A DNA stretch of 63,992 bases, counting the filler, from Gonapodya sp. JEL0774 (Eukaryota), in NCBI GenBank assembly GCA_027604505.1. It is 5 parts of 5 records of this genome, joined end to end, with 100 filler letters (N's around TTAATTAATTAA, not from the genome) between each part and the next. Parts side by side here need not be neighbours in the genome. Positions count along the whole stretch, not along the records: positions 56,634 to 63,992 come from JADIIX010000507.1; 4 more parts are not named here. The stretch is one strand, 5' to 3'. Made by a program: the position numbers and the translations under genes. The notes beneath the pieces are model-generated. The model ran no database searches, was not told the origin of the DNA, and saw only the letters and a list, made by a program, of their open reading frames with translations. Numbering within the stretch: the stretch's first letter is position 1; the number at the start of each line of letters is the position of its first letter. Below are positions 14,150-63,992 of the stretch, one piece after another.

Positions 14150-14249
14150 NNNNNNNNNNNNNNNNNNNNNNNNNNNNNNNNNNNNNNNNNNNNTTAATTA
14201 ATTAANNNNNNNNNNNNNNNNNNNNNNNNNNNNNNNNNNNNNNNNNNNN
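14150..14249. other. Artificial contig linker (N44-TTAATTAATTAA-N44)
   Basis: Six-frame stop linker flanked by Ns. Confidence 0.98.
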
Positions 14250-28332: not shown

Positions 28333-28432
28333 NNNNNNNNNNNNNNNNNNNNNNNNNNNNNNNNNNNNNNNNNNNNTTAATTAATTAANNNNNNNNNNNN
28401 NNNNNNNNNNNNNNNNNNNNNNNNNNNNNNNN
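28333..28432. other. Artificial contig linker
   Basis: N44-TTAATTAATTAA-N44. Confidence 0.98.
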
Positions 28433-38564: not shown

Positions 38565-40078
38565 ATGAGAGAGGTGGTGTGGTGGGGACAGGGCGAAACG
38601 GGTTTGAGGGTGGAGGTGCTGGGGCGAGATTAAGGCGGGTGTCGTAGCGGTGTGTGGAGGAGGGTGGGTTGAGTGGGAGTTGAGAGAGGACAGTGTGGTC
38701 GCGGGTGTCGCTGACGCAGGCCATAGGGAACGCGCCCGAGGTACTCGTACAGGTGTTCAGTCCCTAAATGAACAGTGGGAAGTGCGTGGGGGTTAATGAT
38801 CAATGCGGTAGAGATTATTGACAAACGGTGTGGAGATGACAAACAACATGCACTCACCGATCCCCACCCGTCCGCGAACTCCAAATTCACAAACACTGCA
38901 TCCCCCACTGTGATGTTCAATTCATCCGTGTCCTGTGCTTCAAAGTCTGCAATGGCGTACATGAGCCGCTGAACTGTAATGGGTGGCTGGGGTTCACGAG
39001 GTGGGGGAGAAGGTGGGAGGGGCGCGAGCTGGGTGCGGAGGGTCCCAACTTCACGTTCCAGCGCTGCATTTTTGGTGGAGAGGGTGCGGTTTTCTGTGGA
39101 GAGAGTGCGGTTTTCTGTAGAGAGAGTGCGGTTCTCCGCGGAGAGAGTGTGGTTTTCAGTCTGGAGGTCCTGGATTCCTGCTTCCAGAGTTGTGTTCCGT
39201 GCTTCAATGACTAAGTTCCTCCTCTGCAATTCTTCTGCGTTACTTTCAGCTTTTGCCGTCCTCACAGAAAGCTCCTCATTCCGCCTCTTCACTTGATCCA
39301 ACTCTGCACGTAGCTCCCTATTTTCGCGATCCTTGTCCGTGAGAAGAGTGAGAAGGACTTCAGTCGGTTGAGACGATGAAGAAGGTGCTGTGGTAGGTGG
39401 AGAAGAAGGTTGGGGGCGGGATGAGACTGGAGTGGGAGGGTTGGATTGAGGATCTTGGAGGGCTTGTAGGAATTGAGTGTCAGGAAGTTCGCGAGCAGCG
39501 TCGAGTTCCCTCTGGGTGACCACAGCCCCGTGAGAGAGGAGGAGGCAGACGATGGGGAGGGAAGGGCGAAGAGTGAAGGGCTCTACGAAGGCGTCCTTGG
39601 CCTCTTTGGGATCGATCAACAGGACGTTTCCACCCTTGAGACTGATGACGAGTTGGTTGTCAGGGTTTGGTGCATCCTCTGTGTAGCCGTGCCACCACGT
39701 CCACTCCCCTCCCCTCGCCACCGCCAGCGTCAGGGCACAAAGGAACAAACACGTCCGCAGCCAACGCTCCCTGTCCCAATCGTCCGCAGCCCACGATGGC
39801 CAGAGGTTCGCAAGTTTCCATTCACACACCCCGTTCGGATCGGCGCCTCCTTCCAGCAACGCCTTCACAACGTCCTCATGTGCATGCAGAATGCCCAACG
39901 CCAACACAGATTCGCACTCCACAGTGTCCGTTCTCCTCTCCCAAAATCCGATCTGGCGGCTCAACGTCACCCGCTTCCTGGAGTTCGGGTTCGCTCCTTC
40001 CGCTAGAAGCTGCCGGACCCGCTGACTTTGCCCGTTCTCCACGGCCTCGATCAACTGGATGTCGTGAGGAGTAGACAT
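38565..40078 (-). CDS. Ankyrin-repeat / coiled-coil / SH3 protein (3' end uncertain)
   Basis: LIEAVENGQSQRVRQLLAEGANPN, LGILHAHEDVVKALLEGGADPN; coiled coil; SH3 MYAIADFEAQDTDELNITVGDAVFVNLEFADGWG|..GAFPMACV. Confidence 0.8.
39070..39160 (-). repeat. Coding 21-bp tandem repeat, ~4 copies (heptad TLSTENR)
   Basis: GTGGAGAGAGTGCGGTTTTCT-like units. Confidence 0.9.
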
Positions 40079-41873
40079 GGCCGCTGTCGTTCGGATTGAT
40101 TGTCGTGATGCTTTGCTTTGTTTGCGTTTCGGGTTTGCGCTGTGACCAGCTGCGCCATCTGTTTGTGCGGACTTTCCAAACACTGCCACGAGGAACGATG
40201 GGAGCCTGTACGTTCTTGGTATATTCTCTTTATTGTATTGCGTACATAATACAAACGTGTCCGCTATTCCTGCTCCCGGGGTTGGTGCCACTCCAAACGT
40301 ACTTCCTGCTTCCTCCCCATTTGCCCTGCCTCCAACACGCTCTATCCCCCGGGGACCGCACAACGCAGAAGTCACCAACTTCAGTTTTCACCACCCTCCA
40401 GCCATCCCCCCGTACCCCCTTGAGCATCCCCCTCGCGCCACCCCTGGTGCCCCCCACGCACCACGTCCCTTGCGGCCGCCCCTCGCACCCCTCCTCACAA
40501 ACTGCCTCACGCGCCATCTCCACACCCGCCTCGGCAACCCGTGCCCCGCCCCCCTCCCCCCCCTGTCAGCGCTCCCGTCCCAGACCGCCCAGTCTCTCCT
40601 TTCACATCCCCCTTGCTCCCCCACCGCACAACGCACCTGCATCCCCCGCCGCTGTTCCAAATGCCCGAATTTCCGTGCTTGTCACTAGCTCTCCTCCTGC
40701 CCCCTGCTCAGACATGTCCCGCCCCATATAATATCGGTAGTGCTGCGTGATGGACCTGCTCCTTGACCGTTTCGGCACAACAGCCAGCAACTCACCTCCC
40801 ATGGGCCATGATGGGACATTCTTTTCGCCAACCACCGTGTTGGTCGTCCCTGAGCTCCCTGTCCGTGATATCCATTGCTGGTTTTCTTTCGTGGTCCTTT
40901 CCCGTAGGGCCTGCTACTCCACTCCGCTCCCCAGCGTGCTCCCCCGCCTCCCTATATCCCCGTATGTGTTGCTCCCAATACGAGGTCTCCACCAAAATAT
41001 GCCGTGTTCCTTTCTATACGTTTCATCCAAAAGGAGTGCAGCGTTCGCGAGCCATTGAACCCTCAAATGAAACCTACGGAATCCGTACCGCGCTCACCTC
41101 CACCTTCTTACCGCCCCTTATCCCTCACACACTCACAGTGGTCCCCCTCTCAGTTCCCGTTTCTGACTCCGTTTCTCCTTTGGCGTCCCGTTTCCAGGTC
41201 TCCTCGGTTCACGGTACAAATGGGCGGAGTTGACCGAATGGTACCGGCGGTGACGAAGTTGTGACAGTGCGCGTGACGGCGACCACGAGGAAAGGTGGTG
41301 ACTGAACGAGGGGAACATCCGCGGGTAGGGGGGCACGGATCTTTCTTTCGTCCAACGTGCGGAAGGTGGGGAGCGGCCGTTGTGGCAACTGAGACCGTCA
41401 TAAGGAAAATACATTAAAACGTACCCCCTGGCGTGTACCATGCTCTCAACATTCACTCGGATCGCTTGCTGTCCGCCCATTCCGAACCACCACGTTTCCT
41501 CCTCAGTTCTGGGCCCTTCCCAGGGTTCGCACCACCGCATGTTCTGCCACTCGTGGCGGCGCTGAGGTTTGAATGTACTCACCTTCGCCACTGCTCCTCG
41601 GCGCCAACAAGCCGCATCCGGGCTCTTCGTCACTACCTGGCCGCAGTGACGTGGTTCACCCTCGACAACTCGGACCTAGCGGTGACGGATCCGGCAGACG
41701 GGTAGATCGATATTGCTGAGGAGGAGTGGAGAAGGATCAGTGTCAGAGAGAGCAAAGGGGAAGGGATGTGCGTGATTGTGCAAGTGGGTGAGCCACACTG
41801 TGAGGAAAGCTATCACGGTTCACGGTGTTTAACTCACCTGTTGATTCGCTGATTGTGTCGTGTCCACGTAACC

Positions 41874-41903
41874 TTAGGGTTAGGGTTAGGGTTAGGGTTA
41901 GGG
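41874..41903 (+). repeat. Interstitial telomeric repeat (TTAGGG)5
   Basis: Five perfect units read directly. Confidence 0.95.
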
Positions 41904-42265
41904 TGCATACATGACTAGGGTGTGGGGTGGCGGGTGGGTCGGAAGTTCGGATGCATCCGTCTCCTTCAATTTTTGTCTGATCCACATGTTCTTGGTATGA
42001 ACACGTTCCTTATGCATGGGAGAATCAGATAAATGCATTACATATGGGATTGGGGGGGATTCATGAATGTGCTGGTGCAGGGGGTTGTTCTGCCTATGTC
42101 CCCTACGCTGGTGATTCAATTTCTTACTTGAATAACAAGTGTGGGTCACCAAAATGGATATCATAAGAAAGTTCATAGTCATTTTAGTGCATAATGGTAA
42201 AATGGGGCCTGAAATAAAACTCAGCTAAAAGGATGGTAGGGTGAGTTGGACTTGGCGCCTGGAGG

Positions 42266-42501: not shown

Positions 42502-42601
42502 NNNNNNNNNNNNNNNNNNNNNNNNNNNNNNNNNNNNNNNNNNNNTTAATTAATTAANNNNNNNNNNNNNNNNNNNNNNNNNNNNNNNNNNNNNNNNNNN
42601 N
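42502..42601. other. Artificial contig linker
   Basis: N44-TTAATTAATTAA-N44. Confidence 0.98.
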
Positions 42602-56533: not shown

Positions 56534-56633
56534 NNNNNNNNNNNNNNNNNNNNNNNNNNNNNNNNNNNNNNNNNNNNTTAATTAATTAANNNNNNNNNNN
56601 NNNNNNNNNNNNNNNNNNNNNNNNNNNNNNNNN
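56534..56633. other. Artificial contig linker
   Basis: N44-TTAATTAATTAA-N44. Confidence 0.98.
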
Positions 56634-57630
56634 CCCATATTAGCACCCATCACCATTGGTCATCATGGGTGAATATTCTAACACTCCCAAGCAATCTCAC
56701 ATCAACTTTGTCATGTTTCATGGTGGTCTTGAGAAGAAACTAGAGATTTCAATATGTAAAATGTGTGGAGTTACAAATTCAAAGGTTCGCCCAACCCATA
56801 TTAGCACAATCACTATTGGTCGTCATTGGAGGGTCTTTCAACACTTCTAACACTTCTAGCAACAACATTGATATGTAATGTGCTGGTTTTGAAACGAAAA
56901 TTGGGACTTATAAGTGTTTCAAGTACAGAGTTACAAATTCAAAGTTTTGGGCCATATCACCAGTTTGGGCCCAAAAACCCCTCCTTTCACAGGGGTAACT
57001 GTACTTGCCCTCTCACAAAAAACATTATACTACATATTGGGAGTGGGTTGGGAGTGTTTGAGGTAGTTTGGAGGGGGTCAAAAAAGAGTATCACAGTCAC
57101 GCACCCCTAGTAGTCTCACAGATCCAATCCTGACATGTAGGCTGTGATGGGGGCACTTTGGGGTAAGGAGGGGACAAATTCCGGCTCTCCACAGACCTTC
57201 TGACCACAAACCAATCACTGCAACAGCTTTACCATATATGGTTTCTTTATTCAGAAATCGGGAGAAGGCTCACACACTCTTCCCTGACATGCATGCTGAC
57301 CTGAGGGCCATGTGTTGTGGCGAGGGGACAAATTCCAGCTCCACACAGGCATCCTGGCAACAATCGAATTGCTCCATCAGCTTTTCCATATGTGGTTTCC
57401 CTGTCCAGAAATCATGAGGTTTGTTACAATCAATGGGTGCCAGGCTGGTGCTCGCACAAAGTTTGCCCCTGGCAGGGGACAAATTCCAGACCCCCACAGA
57501 GTTCCTGGAGACCAGCCAACCACCCCAATAACATTTCTATATATGGTTTCCTTGTTCAGAAAAGTTTTTGGGCAGATCAGAGGGGGTCAGTTTTGGGCCG
57601 TATACGTACACCACACCCTATTATCCTAGT
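56634..57630. repeat. CpG-depleted repeat/TE-like region with internal repeats
   Basis: CCCATATTAGCAC..CAYTATTGG-like unit twice; GGGGACAAATTCC three times. Confidence 0.5.
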
Positions 57631-57914: not shown

Positions 57915-60900
57915 CTAGCGGACTGTCCTTGTGATATTATTCGCTGGGAAGAGAGGTGGAGAGAGGGGGAGAAAACAGAGAAAAGAGAGAGAGGAGGGTA
58001 GAGCACTACACACACCACACCCCCTCCCCATCCGCCACTCCAACTCACCTGAGAGACGCAACGTAATCAGGCCGGTCAGATCCTTGAGCCTGTCCGCGCG
58101 GGCCTTGGCTCCCTCATCTCCAATCCTGTTATCTGGAGAATGGTAGACAATGTAACCATCAAATACATCGACCATGGAACAATCAGACCGAGAGACAGTG
58201 AGTAGCGTGTTCCGCAAGCCACCACATCACACAGCAAAAACCACACCCCTCCCCCATCTGCCGCTCCAACTCACAATTGAGATGCAAGGTAGTCAGGCTG
58301 GTCAAACCGTTGAGACCGTCCGCGAGGGCCTTGGCTCCCTCAGGTCCGATCCAGTTATCTGGAGAATGGTAGACGATGGAACCATCGAATACATCGACCG
58401 ATTGAAACCATGGTCGATGGAACAATCAGAGTCAATCAGATCGTGAGACTGTGAGTCGCGTGTCTCACACGCCACAAAGCCACAAACCAAAAACCACACA
58501 CCCTGCCCCTCCGCCGCTTGAACTCACCATTGAGATCCAACGTGGTGAGGCTGGTCAGATCCTTGAGCACGTCCGCGAGGGTTTTGGCTCCCTCGTCTCC
58601 AATCCTGTTCGCTAGACAATGGTAGACAATGGAACCATCAAATACATCAACCAATCGAAATCATCGACCATGGAACAATCAGACCGAGAGACCGTGAGTA
58701 GCGTGTGGCGCGCGCCACCACACCACACACCGAAAACCACACCCCCTCCCACTCTGCCGCTCCAACTCACACGAGAGATTCAATGTAGTCAGGCTGGTCG
58801 AACCCTTGAGACCGTCCGCGAGGGCCTTGGCTCCCTCGTGATAGATACTGTTATCTAGACAATGGTAGACAATGGAACCATCGAATACATCGACCGATCG
58901 AAACCATCAACCATGGAACCATCAGACCAAGAGACGGTGAGTAGCGTGTCGCGCGCGCCACCACACCACCTCCCCTTCCGCCGTCCCAACTCACAATTGA
59001 GATGCAAGGTAGTCAGGCTGGTCAGATCCTTGAGCCCGTCCGCGAGGGCCTTGGCTCCCTCGTCTCCAATCCTGTTATCTGGAGAATGGTAGACAATGGA
59101 ACCATCAAATACATCGACCATGGAACAATCAGACCGAGAGACAGTGAGTCGCGTGTTCCGCAAGCCACCACATCACACAGCAAAAACCACACCCCTCCCC
59201 CATCTGCCGCTCCAACTCACAATTGAGATGCAACGTACTCAGGCTGGTCGAACCCTTGAGACCGTCCGCGAGGGCCTTGGCTCCCTCAGATCCGATCCTG
59301 TTATCTGGAGAATGGTAGACGATGGAACCATCGAATACATCGACCGATTGAAACCATGGTCGATGGAACAATCAGAGTCAATCAGATCGTGAGACTGTGA
59401 GTCGCGTGTCCCACACGCCACCACACCACACACCAAAAACCACACCCCCTCCCCCTCTGCCGCTCCAACTCACATGAGAGATTCAACGTAGTCAGGCTGG
59501 TCGAACCCTTGAGACCGTCCGCGAGGGCCTTGGCTCCCTCAGGTCCGATCCTGATATCTGGAGAATGGTAGACGATGGCACCATCGAATACATCGACCGA
59601 TTGAAACCATGGTCAATGGAGCAATCAGAGTCAATCAGATCGTGAGACCGTGAGTCGCGTGTCCCACACGCCACCACGCCACACACTGAAAACCACACTT
59701 CCGCCCCATCCGCCGCTTCAACTCACCATGGAGACCCAACGTGGTGAGGCTGGTCAGATCCTTGAGAACGTCTGCGAGGGTTTTGGCTCCCTCAGGCCCG
59801 ATCCTGTTATCTGGAGAATGGTAGACGATGGAACCATCGAATACATCAACCGATTGAAACCATGGTCGATGGAACAATCAGAGTCAATCAGATTGTGAGA
59901 CCGTGAGTCGCGTGTCCCACACACCACAAAGCCACAAACCAAAAACCACACCCCCTCCCCCTCCGCCGCTTCAACTCACCATTGAGATCCAATTCGGTCA
60001 ATGTCGTATTGCCCTTGAGCCCGTCCGCGAGGGCCTTCGCTCCTTCAGGTCCGATCCTGTTATCTAGACAATGGAACCATTGACCGATCAAAAAAGTCAA
60101 TCAGATGGAGAGACCGTGAGTCGCTTGTCGCGCACACCACCACACCACACACCAAACCCCTCCGCACCCCTCTGCCGCTCCAACTCACAATTGAGATGCA
60201 ACGTGGTGAGGCTGGTATGGCCTTTGAGTCCTTGCGAGAGGGCCTTCGCTCCCTCGTCTCCGATGTAGTTCTCTGGGATGTAAGTGGGATGAGTCATCGC
60301 GGAGGGGGTACATGTGAGTGGTAGTAAGGAAAGGTAAGACGTGAGCGTGAGCTTGAGGGAATGTTTGGGAGGAGAAAGGTTAGACGCTGTTCACTCACCT
60401 TTCAAATTGAGCTTCTGTAGGGACGTGAGGCCCTTCAAGGCTTCTTTAAGTATGTTCCCAGCCTTTTCGCCGATCAAAACGTTGTCTGGCCGGGTCAAAG
60501 ATGTGAGAATGTTGTTCCCGCTGCTGTTCCCGACGCATGCTTCAAGGAAGTTCACCTTCAAGATCCAGTTCAATCAGCATAGTGGTTCTTGCTAGTGCAT
60601 CACCAAGGGCTTGCAGTCCTTCAACTTCAACAGAACTTCCTAAGATGTGAAGAGGTATCCATTGGAATTGATTTCCACCATCGGAGTACGGAAGCACACC
60701 GGCGAGATATGGCAATCCACTCATACGCACCCGAGAGATCCAATATTGTTAAATGAGAAGCCACCGTGCCCTGCTTCAGCGCATGAGCAAGCGCCCGTGC
60801 ACCCACGACACCAATAATTCGATCTAGAATCACGAAGAAATGTATGTAAATGTTGCATGGTAGTCAGCTGCTATGGCGCTTGTCCCCATGCAACGAAACA

Positions 60901-63178
60901 GCAAAAAAATGAGCTGTGGATCAAATTGTCTCACCTTTGAAACTAAGAGTGTTCCCATTGGAGGAGTTTGACAACGCATTTATCATGCTATCAATGCTGA
61001 TGGTGTCCATCCATGTCCCTGAAACGGTCATCCAGTGCGATCAGACGTTGGTAGATAAAAATAACATTGAGGACTCACTCACTCTTCTTCCCAATGTTTC
61101 GAATCTCGAGGATTGCCAAGGCTTTGAGAGGGTGACCATCGGGAGACAACCTTTTGACACGCTCAAACTCTGTCTTGCCATCGCGCTGGCGGTTGCAGGC
61201 GAGATAGGCTCTACCAAGGTGGAGCCGCCACTCCAGTGATTCCACGCTTTTGTCCTCCTCTTTTGAGTTTTCCTCTCTGGGTGGTTTGATCATCTCTTCC
61301 AGTATTTTCACCGTTCTGACCGCCTGTCCACCAGAAAAGCAGGCAAGGGCGAGTGCGTACCGCGCTTCCAGCACGAGAGTATCGTCTTGCGACTTGTCTT
61401 TTTGCACGGCTACAACGACTGGTGACGATTTTTCACTTTGTCGGTCCTGTTGTCCCCGTAGAAAACTCAAAATGGGAGGCAGAGACCAGCCGCCCTGAGT
61501 CGTACTTGAGGTAGAAGGCATGACAACAGTGTTATGCTTGAAATCCCTCCGGGGCAAGAGCAGAGAATGTTGTGTGACATCTTGCCTTCCTTTGAGGCAT
61601 ATTTCGAGTAAGGGGATTGCATCCTTTCCTCTCCCATCTTTAATCAGACATCGCCCAACCTGGAGGCACAGGTCGTACTTCTCAGTGAGCTCTTCGACAT
61701 CTTCCTCACTGAGAACTTTTGAAGCGTGCGGGAGGTACTCCCTCCATCGCTCTCGATTTTGCCATTCGTCTGTTGGAAATATCTTTAAGATGTGTTTGAT
61801 CGCCTCTTTCATCGTTTTGGAAAAGAGGGTCCCGTTCTGTGAGAGAGCGTCGTCAATTACTTGCCCACGTAGCCAGTTCCGTGCTGCCAGATGTACGAGG
61901 CGATGGAGATCGTATCGTTCCTCCTCTGAGCCCTTTACCTCCCGAGAAGACACAAACGCATACGATTTCAGTATGCCGATGGTTGTATCTATGTCCTCTT
62001 CTGGTTCCATTGGCAGAATACTTTTAGGGATCGCCTTCCATTCTACACATCCCATGAACGCAAGAAGCTTTGCAGAGTTTCGACTTTCCTTGGACATCTG
62101 CCCAAACGAAATTAACCACGTTGTTGCTACTGATTTCTGAGATTTCTTAGAACTTGTGTCATCCAGGAGCTTAATCACTTGTTCCTCGTTAATTGCACGC
62201 ATCTTCTCCAAGTACTTTTTTATGGTGACTCGTTTAACGTTAATGAAAGAGGTTACCTGAGAGATCGCCAGTGGAAAGTATGCGAGCTCATTCAATAGCT
62301 CTCTTAAGCTCGAATTGTCGTCGAGCTCGTGTTTGGGTTGGACAGAGTTCCTGAAAAGTTCGGTCGCGTCTTCGTTACTCATTCCTTCCACATCAATGAA
62401 ATGATGTCCCGTTAGTCCGTTTGCCATTTCTCCATAGCGGGTTGTAAACAGAAGGAGACCGTGTTTGCTGTGTGGAAGGTAGTAATGAATACCGCGTCCC
62501 TGCTTGGGAAACACAATATCTGCATCATCGGCATTGTCCACAATCAAGAGCCACCGTCCGGCTGCCTCCTCGCTCAAGTACCGCGTGACAACCTCCTTGA
62601 CATCTTCCGTTTCCCCTATCATATGAGAGATCCCAACCTTTATAGCCACCTCCTTGCAGGCCTGCTCAAAGCTCTCCATACTAAGCGCTGGAAACCAAAA
62701 GATTGAGTAGTCTTTATATGTGTCCTCCACACTGTACGCAAACTCCAGTGCGATCTGCGTCTTCCCGACACCACCCAGTCCCAGGAGAGATAACCTCTGA
62801 CAGTCTTTATTGTCGAAGAGTTTTCTTGTCAAAGTGGCGAGTATGTCGCGACGGCCCACAAACTCTTTGTTCCTCGAAAAGGGAATGTAGTAGTGGGGTG
62901 CAGGGGAGGAGCCAGGAGTCGCGCTAACTTTGGATTGTGAAGCACTGATGGCATTCATGATATTACAGCGGTCAAAGGTACGGACAGTAAGCACGCGGAG
63001 CTTTGAATGGTCGAGCTTACCTCGAGCCTTGGTGGATAGAATTGCCCATGTGTAAACGCGCATTGCCGTCAATGTACTGGGCCCCTACTGAGTAGGTGAT
63101 ATTATTCACTGTTTGCGGAGATAGCGACGGACTCTGAAGGTGTGGTTCAGCAGCAGTAGCGGTGTCGGACATCGCCAT
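57915..63178 (-). CDS. NLR-like STAND protein: HET-s-like amyloid motif - NB-ARC - TPR-like - 14 LRR exons (~1078 aa, 17 exons)
   Basis: Manual GT-AG splice model: 63178-63021, 62944-61083, 61018-60935, 60823-60731, 60639-60556, 60485-60399, ten 84-nt exons (60272-60189, 60063-59980, 59810-59727, 59557-59474, 59304-59221, 59078-58995, 58854-58771, 58611-58528, 58358-58275, 58132-58049), then 57943-57915; 3237 nt, open throughout. Walker A GLGGVGKT, Walker B LLIVDNADD, LLFTTR, FPLAI, YDLHRLVH. Confidence 0.82.
58049..60272 (-). repeat. Tandem exon+intron array, 10 units of 209-253 bp, each with one 28-aa RI-like LRR
   Basis: Consensus xNRIGxEGAKALADGLKxxTSLTTLxLx; the introns are also homologous to each other. 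Confidence 0.95.
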
Positions 63179-63492: not shown

Positions 63493-63609
63493 ATGGCTGA
63501 GGCTTTCGGGATCGTCTCGGGAGCTGTCGGTATCGCCGCCACCTTCAACACCTGTCTCGAATGCTTCAACCACAAATCACAGATACTTTCGAAATTTAGA
63601 AATTTTTGA
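63493..63609 (+). pseudogene. 5' fragment of a HET-S-like HeLo-domain gene, interrupted after codon 26
   Basis: MAEAFGIVSGAVGIAATFNTCLECFN resembles the recalled HET-s N-terminus (MSEPFGIVAGALNVAGLFNNCVDCFEY). Similarity stops abruptly at 63570 with no GT donor. Confidence 0.75.
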
Positions 63610-63992
63610 TAAGATCAGATCAGAAAATGAAAGTACAGGAAAAGATTCAGGACTTGCACCTGAGAGAATTCAGTCGGAGAGACTTTAGGGAATGAAATCT
63701 GAGATGTTGTTCTCTGAGACAGTGTCGTAGAAGTGCAAGTATGAGGGCGAACCAGTCACGATACGTCCCGCAATGGTCCCACGGACAAAATCCGTTGCCT
63801 CGGTAAGTTTTCTACTTGAATTGACCGAGCTCTTTTTGTCTTTTTCCGCTCTTTTCCCTCTTCCTACTCTCAGACTGCTCGGTTTCCCCCCACTCTCGCT
63901 CGCCCCTTCCTCCACCACGGAACCTTTATTGTCGCACTCGAAAGCAGAACATGCATCGCCGCATCTCGTTTTGTAGCCTCGTTATTTCTCCA

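Follow-up and report, generated by a model that had tools for sequence, protein, structure and literature searches.

Ten consecutive one-repeat exons in the genome of the zoosporic fungus Gonapodya sp. JEL0774 probably act as mutually exchanging cassettes that together make up the predicted LRR sensor of a spliced, NLR-like NB-ARC gene. The exons lie within the window, that is, the whole stretch of 63,992 nt analysed (assembly GCA_027604505.1), on a contig that starts at position 56634. What the DNA itself shows is a 17-exon model free of stops whose introns are all GT-AG, an NB-ARC that is intact, a HeLo fragment next to the gene, and repeat units of mosaic make-up (Table 1).

Table 1 Features of the predicted NB-ARC-LRR gene and its neighbour, in window positions.
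Feature	Position	Strand	Remarks
HET-S/HeLo gene fragment, divergent	63493..63609	+	match over residues 1-27; stop in frame after residue 38
Predicted exon 1	63021..63172	-	152 nt, 50 aa, one HET-s-related amyloid motif (r0-like)
Exon 2	61083..62944	-	1862 nt, intronless: NB-ARC, winged-helix region, degenerate TPR remnant
Exon 3	60935..61018	-	84 nt, diverged, LRR-cap-like; same join in NCBI model of P0001
Exon 4	60731..60823	-	93 nt, diverged LRR; found in P0001
Exon 5	60556..60639	-	84 nt, diverged LRR; weak donor GTGAAC; aligns to P0004 LRRs
Exon 6	60399..60485	-	87 nt, diverged LRR
Array exon R1	60189..60272	-	84 nt, one 28-aa LRR; LRR_6 E 0.001, single exon below curated cut-off
Array exon R2	59980..60063	-	
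Array exon R3	59727..59810	-	
Array exon R4	59474..59557	-	
Array exon R5	59221..59304	-	within tract common to R9
Array exon R6	58995..59078	-	
Array exon R7	58771..58854	-	
Array exon R8	58528..58611	-	
Array exon R9	58275..58358	-	within tract common to R5
Array exon R10	58049..58132	-	five private amino-acid changes, one at core leucine (L-to-R)
Predicted last exon (17)	57915..57943	-	29 nt, TAG at end
Recent conversion or duplication tract	58133..58450		310/318 bases identical to 59079-59400

The array runs on the minus strand from 60272 to 58049 and comprises ten 84-nt exons (60272-60189 to 58132-58049), termed R1-R10, which are exons 7-16 of the predicted 17-exon gene. Every one of them is preceded by AG and followed by GTGAGT, and all ten are of phase 1/1; exons 3-6 are likewise phase 1. 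Pairs of array exons differ at 6-27 positions (mean identity 79%), the encoded repeats share 74% mean amino-acid identity, and introns 1-9 are homologous, with a mean distance of 14.6%, gaps excluded. The array was also detected by Tandem Repeats Finder with a period of 253. The repeats have a 28-aa period and the LxxLxLxxNxI core of the ribonuclease-inhibitor (RI) type (LRR_6), and E-G-A-K is constant in all ten. The symmetric 84-nt exons with homologous introns, the invariant EGAK, the listed variants of the repeat motif and the split codons T/AT, G/AT and T/CG (the slash marks the intron) were thereby found as the original prediction had described them. It had also proposed a higher-order duplication, of which one part stands: 58133-58450 matches 59079-59400, but as a single tract of about 1.3 units and not as a multi-unit repeat. 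A four-unit higher-order repeat was rejected, since the remaining pairs at that spacing show 22/84, 29/159 and 21/84 differences. An assembly artefact was named in the original prediction as an outcome that would undo it; units invented by assembly are unlikely, because no two exons differ by fewer than 6 nt and exact repeats reach at most 111 nt. Further identical units may possibly have been collapsed in the assembly.

The array forms the tail of a larger predicted gene that starts at 63172 on the minus strand. The joined model has 17 exons and 16 GT-AG introns and reads through 3231 nt in frame, giving 1076 aa with no stop. Its predicted order is a HET-s-type amyloid motif, NB-ARC, a TPR remnant and then 14 ribonuclease-inhibitor-type repeat exons, four of them diverged. 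The NB-ARC of exon 2 matches PF00931 with an E of 6e-15 (55.6 bits against a cut-off of 23.5), and its P-loop and Walker B are both intact; the TPR remnant scores weakly (TPR_14 E 0.008, under the Pfam cut-off). As judged from this DNA-based gene model, the predicted NB-ARC-LRR gene looks intact. The last intron (57944-58048, 105 nt) is itself in frame and stop-free, and its retention would add 35 residues.

The unspliced NB-ARC frame meets a stop within a few bases past the exon-2 donor, which is what one would see if an NB-ARC-TPR gene ended after exon 2 and the LRR exons belonged to a separate LRR-only gene behind it; moreover, the paralog P0005 is annotated without LRRs. We regard this reading as very unlikely. 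The gap between exons 2 and 3 is only 64 nt long, probably too short for a promoter, carries GTGAGT...CAG ends and joins in frame, and four Gonapodya models are fused. The placement of the C-terminal repeats on the NB-ARC chain is predicted both by our gene model and by the paralog annotations. P0002, P0004 and P0149, all from Gonapodya sp. JEL0774, carry an NB-ARC-like region, TPR and LRR_6 in one chain; P0002 and P0149 exceed the Pfam cut-offs for both NB-ARC and LRR_6, and the NB-ARC of P0004 scores 20 bits, below the cut-off of 23.5. The best database match is P0001 of the same strain (88.6% identity over 694 aa), whose NCBI model leads from NB-ARC into exons 3-4 and then through a donor to a stop. 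P0003 is partial, and the models of P0005 and P0007 are without LRR. The fusion of NB-ARC and LRR is common to several Gonapodya paralogs on separate contigs.

Exchange of sequence among the array units is well supported. The four-gamete test is failed by 32-48% of informative site pairs among units, and neighbouring sites are less incompatible than distant ones, with p values of 0.0002-0.0004 in two alignments and 0.007-0.08 in the third. A gene-conversion check among exons, as originally suggested, therefore came out on the side of exchange (p<=0.0004 for two of three alignments), and the concerted evolution with exchange among repeats that marks het-e-like genes is found here as well. Within the young tract, the exon shows 6/84 differences as compared to 2/250 intron bases (Fisher p 0.004); five of the six exon differences are nonsynonymous and some match other units, so that some of them may be conversions. 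Exons are in general more diverse than introns (0.19 vs 0.12), and this holds at synonymous sites too (0.24-0.32).

To the original prediction, much of the variation lay around LxLxxN. An enrichment at the strand does hold, with a mean entropy of 1.30 bits at the a-priori xxLxLxx positions vs 0.69 elsewhere (p 0.04). The positions singled out originally (26, 28, 1 and 3) give p 0.003 as a set picked after seeing the data, but account for only 12 of the 33 extra amino-acid alleles; variation is also seen at positions 6, 15, 18 and 19. In the P0004 model, mapped by hand, repeat positions 24-28 form the strand, the junction residue comes next and the helix spans 6-18. The pN/pS ratio (NG86) is 0.55 overall; it falls to 0.13 at the core and lies at 0.64-1.35 in the strand sets, and minimum-change ratios at strand positions are 0.68-1.19 (p 0.35-0.86). 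Other non-core positions have a deficit of nonsynonymous changes (p 0.0045). Purifying selection thus acts at the core and at other non-core positions. Positive selection at the strand positions was not detected by NG86 or minimum-change counts, dN/dS being about 1 and not significantly above it; the excess of exon differences in the young tract is left as a hint of such selection.

Such ratios near 1 at the variable sites would also suit an orphaned, decaying NLR copy, in which the array arose by neutral unequal crossover and the variation reflects relaxed constraint, not recognition specificity. The truncated HeLo neighbour, the weak TPR and the five private changes in R10 point in the same direction. 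We nevertheless consider decay rather improbable, given that the frame is intact over 3231 nt with all splice sites canonical, that purifying selection is seen outside the variable positions, and that near-identical repeats are found in P0002 and P0004 too (84-89% mean identity).

A different origin of diversity had been put forward originally, namely that the intron splits a variable codon, so that exon skipping could create new residues. In the array exons the last base is T or G and the first two are AT, CG or AG, and G/AG and G/CG also occur among the split codons at array ends. The exons are indeed frame-preserving cassettes, with stops in 0/120 forward junction pairs vs 6/55 back-joins. 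Yet the residue encoded is Y, D, S, A or E in each of the 66 forward joins that start at exon 6 or later, and forward skipping inside the array gives only Y, D, S and A (E at the first junction), all of which are present in the linear form. Skipping would therefore appear to pair a strand with a different junction residue without adding to the residue alphabet, and the proposed creation of new residues did not hold up. A combinatorial generator based on splicing, in which exon skipping and split codons supply many receptors per cell with new junction residues, is in our estimate unlikely. It could draw on the uniform 1/1 phase and the stop-free forward joins, on the up to 1024 in-frame subsets that ten distinct repeats permit, and on such splicing as reported, in the parts consulted, for brown-algal ROCO genes (PMC11378527) and human NLRP3. 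Apart from the unchanged alphabet, two points speak against it. One 28-aa LRR per frame-preserving exon, with its border at the strand, is the normal NOD/NLRC layout in the available text of PMC6642158; because symmetric one-LRR exons are this default, the symmetry of the array is uninformative on its use. Furthermore, a search of the window for spare or inverted copies of the repeat exons gave matches only at the ten exon positions on the minus strand, unlike the Ectocarpus ROCO loci as portrayed in part of PMC3341825. Under our preferred reading of exchanging cassettes, new binding faces would mostly come from changes in the DNA itself, namely conversion, unequal crossover at the homologous introns and point change, and splice-made codons would not be their main source.

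At the N-terminus of the predicted protein, the motif in exon 1 follows the HRAM rules at positions 5, 10, 15, 16, 18 and 19. The features that define an HRAM r0, i.e., G19, R/K15 and hydrophobic residues at 5, 10, 16 and 18, are all present, and the chance of this core pattern within 50 aa is about 0.003. The motif departs from the pattern at hydrophobic-8 and polar-3, where it has Q8 and Y3. In 9 of 21 positions, counted by hand, it is identical to a published Hypoxylon r0, which is given with Q8 and F3 in the consulted part of PMC4518210 supplement 2. Exon 1 also resembles the annotated N-terminus of the paralog P0149 (E 2e-5); Pfam and PDB searches with it gave no match, and six exact variants of its motif were absent from the available portion of the HRAM table. 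Because the NCBI models of P0001 and P0004 begin in a different frame in this region, exon 1 is a prediction. The gene start at 62945-63063, compared with P0004 residues 1-90, is far closer to P0004 than the remaining NB-ARC is, which suggests a putative exchange between paralogs.

Head-to-head with the NB-ARC-LRR gene lies the HeLo fragment, beyond which the window ends after about 380 nt. It matches PF14479 with an E of 1.7e-4 (just under the cut-off) and HET-s (PDB 2wvn) with an E of 4e-5, and falls into the Atlas HeLo cluster with 0.93. We found no plausible donor ahead of the stop after residue 38. After residue 27 the resemblance to HeLo breaks off sharply (63575-63992), possibly through an insertion. 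The gene pair appears to be arranged as in NWD2/HET-S, with a candidate effector that is truncated or interrupted here. By analogy with NWD2/HET-S, a ligand bound to the LRR face would set the NB-ARC switch free; the N-terminal amyloid motifs would then become stacked through oligomerisation and would template a HeLo pore-former, leading to cell death. As the adjoining HeLo gene looks truncated, the effector would need to be encoded elsewhere. In the part of Daskalov 2015 (PMC4518210) available, NWD2/HET-S and the HRAM NLR-effector pairs likewise have a single N-terminal HET-s-related motif and an adjacent HeLo gene. The differences are NB-ARC, TPR remnant and LRR here as opposed to NACHT-WD there, a likely chytrid host, the motif with Q8, and a truncated HeLo, only the N-terminus of which adjoins, as compared to a HeLo gene with two C-terminal repeats in the HRAM pairs (PMC4518210).

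To place the gene among its relatives, we used the best 120-150 matches per search, out of 874 to 95,020. A match of more than 100 bits to the NB-ARC region was seen in 300 of 487 retrieved proteins, and such LRRs occur in four of these 300, all from Gonapodya; the LRR profile derives from the window plus three of those four, the Pfam matches being the independent evidence. Measured with a query taken from P0004, the window model and six Gonapodya proteins have a TPR-like cover of 67-84 residues, vs 130-387 in 13 relatives. Owing to this difference, we infer that LRRs replaced most of the TPR array, so that the LRR exons would have taken over from most of an ancestral TPR array. Sensor replacement is the step proposed for the rise of NB-LRR receptors. 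The Gonapodya family, in which an amyloid motif and NB-ARC are combined with a TPR stub and LRR exons, would offer a concrete case of TPR-to-LRR replacement and carries the range of HET-s-type signalling parts into the zoosporic fungi.

The LRRs of P0004 match ribonuclease inhibitor and NLRP chains, and a single-sequence model of P0004 shows strand-helix repeats with an LRR pLDDT of ~67-81, the whole-chain mean being 43 and the model poor outside the LRRs. Among the matches listed, the nearest to these LRRs are proteins of Mortierellaceae, NLRC3-like proteins of animals and unnamed ones, and many Mortierellaceae proteins with long LRR_6 arrays are found there. The combination of NB and LRR is not unique to Gonapodya among fungi, since P0331 from Linnemannia hyalina carries NACHT and LRR_6, both above cut-off. 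The unnamed P0483 has TPR, two NB-ARC and LRR_6, and in the eight other LRR_6-array proteins scanned a Pfam NB domain was absent (8/8).

The window is a chain of short contigs, and its NB-ARC, amyloid motif and HeLo fragment are of ascomycete type, as might be expected if the contig were an assembly chimera or an ascomycete contaminant and the gene hence no chytrid gene. We judge this highly improbable. Besides the distinctness of the ten exons and the sharing of the fusion by paralogs on separate contigs, no named ascomycete is among the best 120 LRR matches, and such repeats occur in 0 of 80 metagenome NB-ARC-TPR loci, 38 of which are followed by 2 kb or more of downstream sequence. Scanning metagenomes with exon 2 gave no close relative and 117 pattern matches, none of them confirmed.

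As to origin, the named non-Gonapodya matches listed for exon 2 are Pezizomycotina with at most 47% identity, apart from one labelled Quercus suber, and its bacterial relatives reach 25-30% identity over the domain. In a quick unrooted tree of 63 rows, eight Gonapodya rows group together (98) within a cluster made up mainly of Dothideomycetes. In a rooted tree that leaves out environmental rows, Gonapodya falls outside a 25-row ascomycete group, whereas in one that includes them five of six Gonapodya rows are nested among Dothideomycetes (98/98). An AU test does not reject exclusion from the Dothideomycetes (p 0.62), the constrained tree being 6.5 lnL higher. The trees thus disagree on nesting and do not force a transfer from ascomycetes, which nevertheless seems plausible because exon 2 is intronless, because the partners are ascomycete-type (HeLo, HRAM, and PNP_UDP in P0007) and because no other named chytrid is among the 239 matches listed. 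The GC3 of exon 2 (0.54, vs 0.48-0.68 in other window genes) is uninformative on transfer. Only tentatively do we propose that a zoosporic fungus gained an ascomycete-type amyloid NB-ARC-TPR/HeLo module, likely horizontally, and rebuilt it as an NB-LRR family via exon cassettes. If true, NB-LRR would have arisen independently within Fungi, in a way that can still be seen, caught mid-swap with the TPR stub present, and the family would join a recombining exon-cassette sensor to signalling through prion-like templating.

The top named matches outside Gonapodya are NB-ARC-TPR proteins of Pezizomycotina, with an NB-ARC region at most 47% identical (Cenococcum P0009) followed by TPRs; theirs are long TPR arrays without LRRs. 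The fungal NLR sensors of Dyrka 2014 consist of WD, ANK or TPR without LRR, while the predicted sensor here is mostly LRR, and the gene would thus fall outside the described WD/ANK/TPR types. Fungal NLRs are given as having no LRRs, or other repeats instead, in the consulted parts of PMC4986451, PMC5658179, PMC9815663 and PMC12881547, and as having 'predominantly' other kinds of repeats in those of PMC10197012. The 2014 survey (Dyrka 2014, PMC4986451), as far as available, lists no NLRs in chytrids. PMC12258605 allowed for LRRs in 122 proteomes, including G. prolifera, and counts from one NLR in some chytrids; its available sections report no fungal LRR case, and 'LRR' is absent from the supplements examined. 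No report of a fungal NB-LRR was found in the literature searched, a scope that leaves most subscription journals outside. The Gonapodya family contradicts these no-LRR statements of 2014-2025.

The original prediction had likened the array to WD-repeat shuffling in het-e/het-d, and the analogy turned out closer than claimed, since the array-bearing gene is itself NLR-like. The het-e/het-d/nwd WD40, ANK and TPR NLRs share internally similar repeats, exchange and variable surface positions in the parts seen of PMC4986451 and PMC13449251, the latter also giving NLRs with conserved repeats as widespread. As far as exchange in the DNA is concerned, the array behaves as het-e-type repeat shuffling does. 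It differs in having LRRs, one per exon, and a surface dN/dS not significantly above 1.

As a layout, exon cassettes are already familiar from animals and brown algae. Exon-per-repeat shuffling has been published for the latter (PMC3341825, PMC11378527; partial texts), where the Ectocarpus ROCO LRR and NB-ARC-TPR exons likewise combine one repeat per exon, shuffling and candidate immune receptors. There, the LRR exons are 72 nt long and sit on ROC-COR proteins while NB-ARC goes with TPR exons, and spare or inverted exons in introns as well as positive selection were shown; none of this holds here. Vertebrate NOD/NLRC genes, in the consulted part of PMC6642158, share the 28-aa RI-type LRR per frame-preserving exon with a fixed strand border, but have NACHT in place of NB-ARC and no amyloid r0 of this type. 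The likeness to their exon layout probably reflects convergence.

Several features of the surroundings were also recorded. Spacers of 100 nt at 14150-14249, 28333-28432, 42502-42601 and 56534-56633, each made of 44 N, a 12-base all-frame stop motif and 44 N, join contigs of ~14 kb, so that flanking genes are not true neighbours. Downstream of the gene, at the start of its contig (56634-57562), lie degenerate direct repeats of ~155-160 bp that are 69-75% identical and are perhaps a satellite or transposon remnant. Five perfect TTAGGG units are found at 41874-41904, ~600 nt from a contig end. A minus-strand reading frame at 38630-40387 appears ankyrin-like, coiled-coil and SH3-like (labels assigned by eye) and contains a 21-bp repeat in four copies at 39075-39157.
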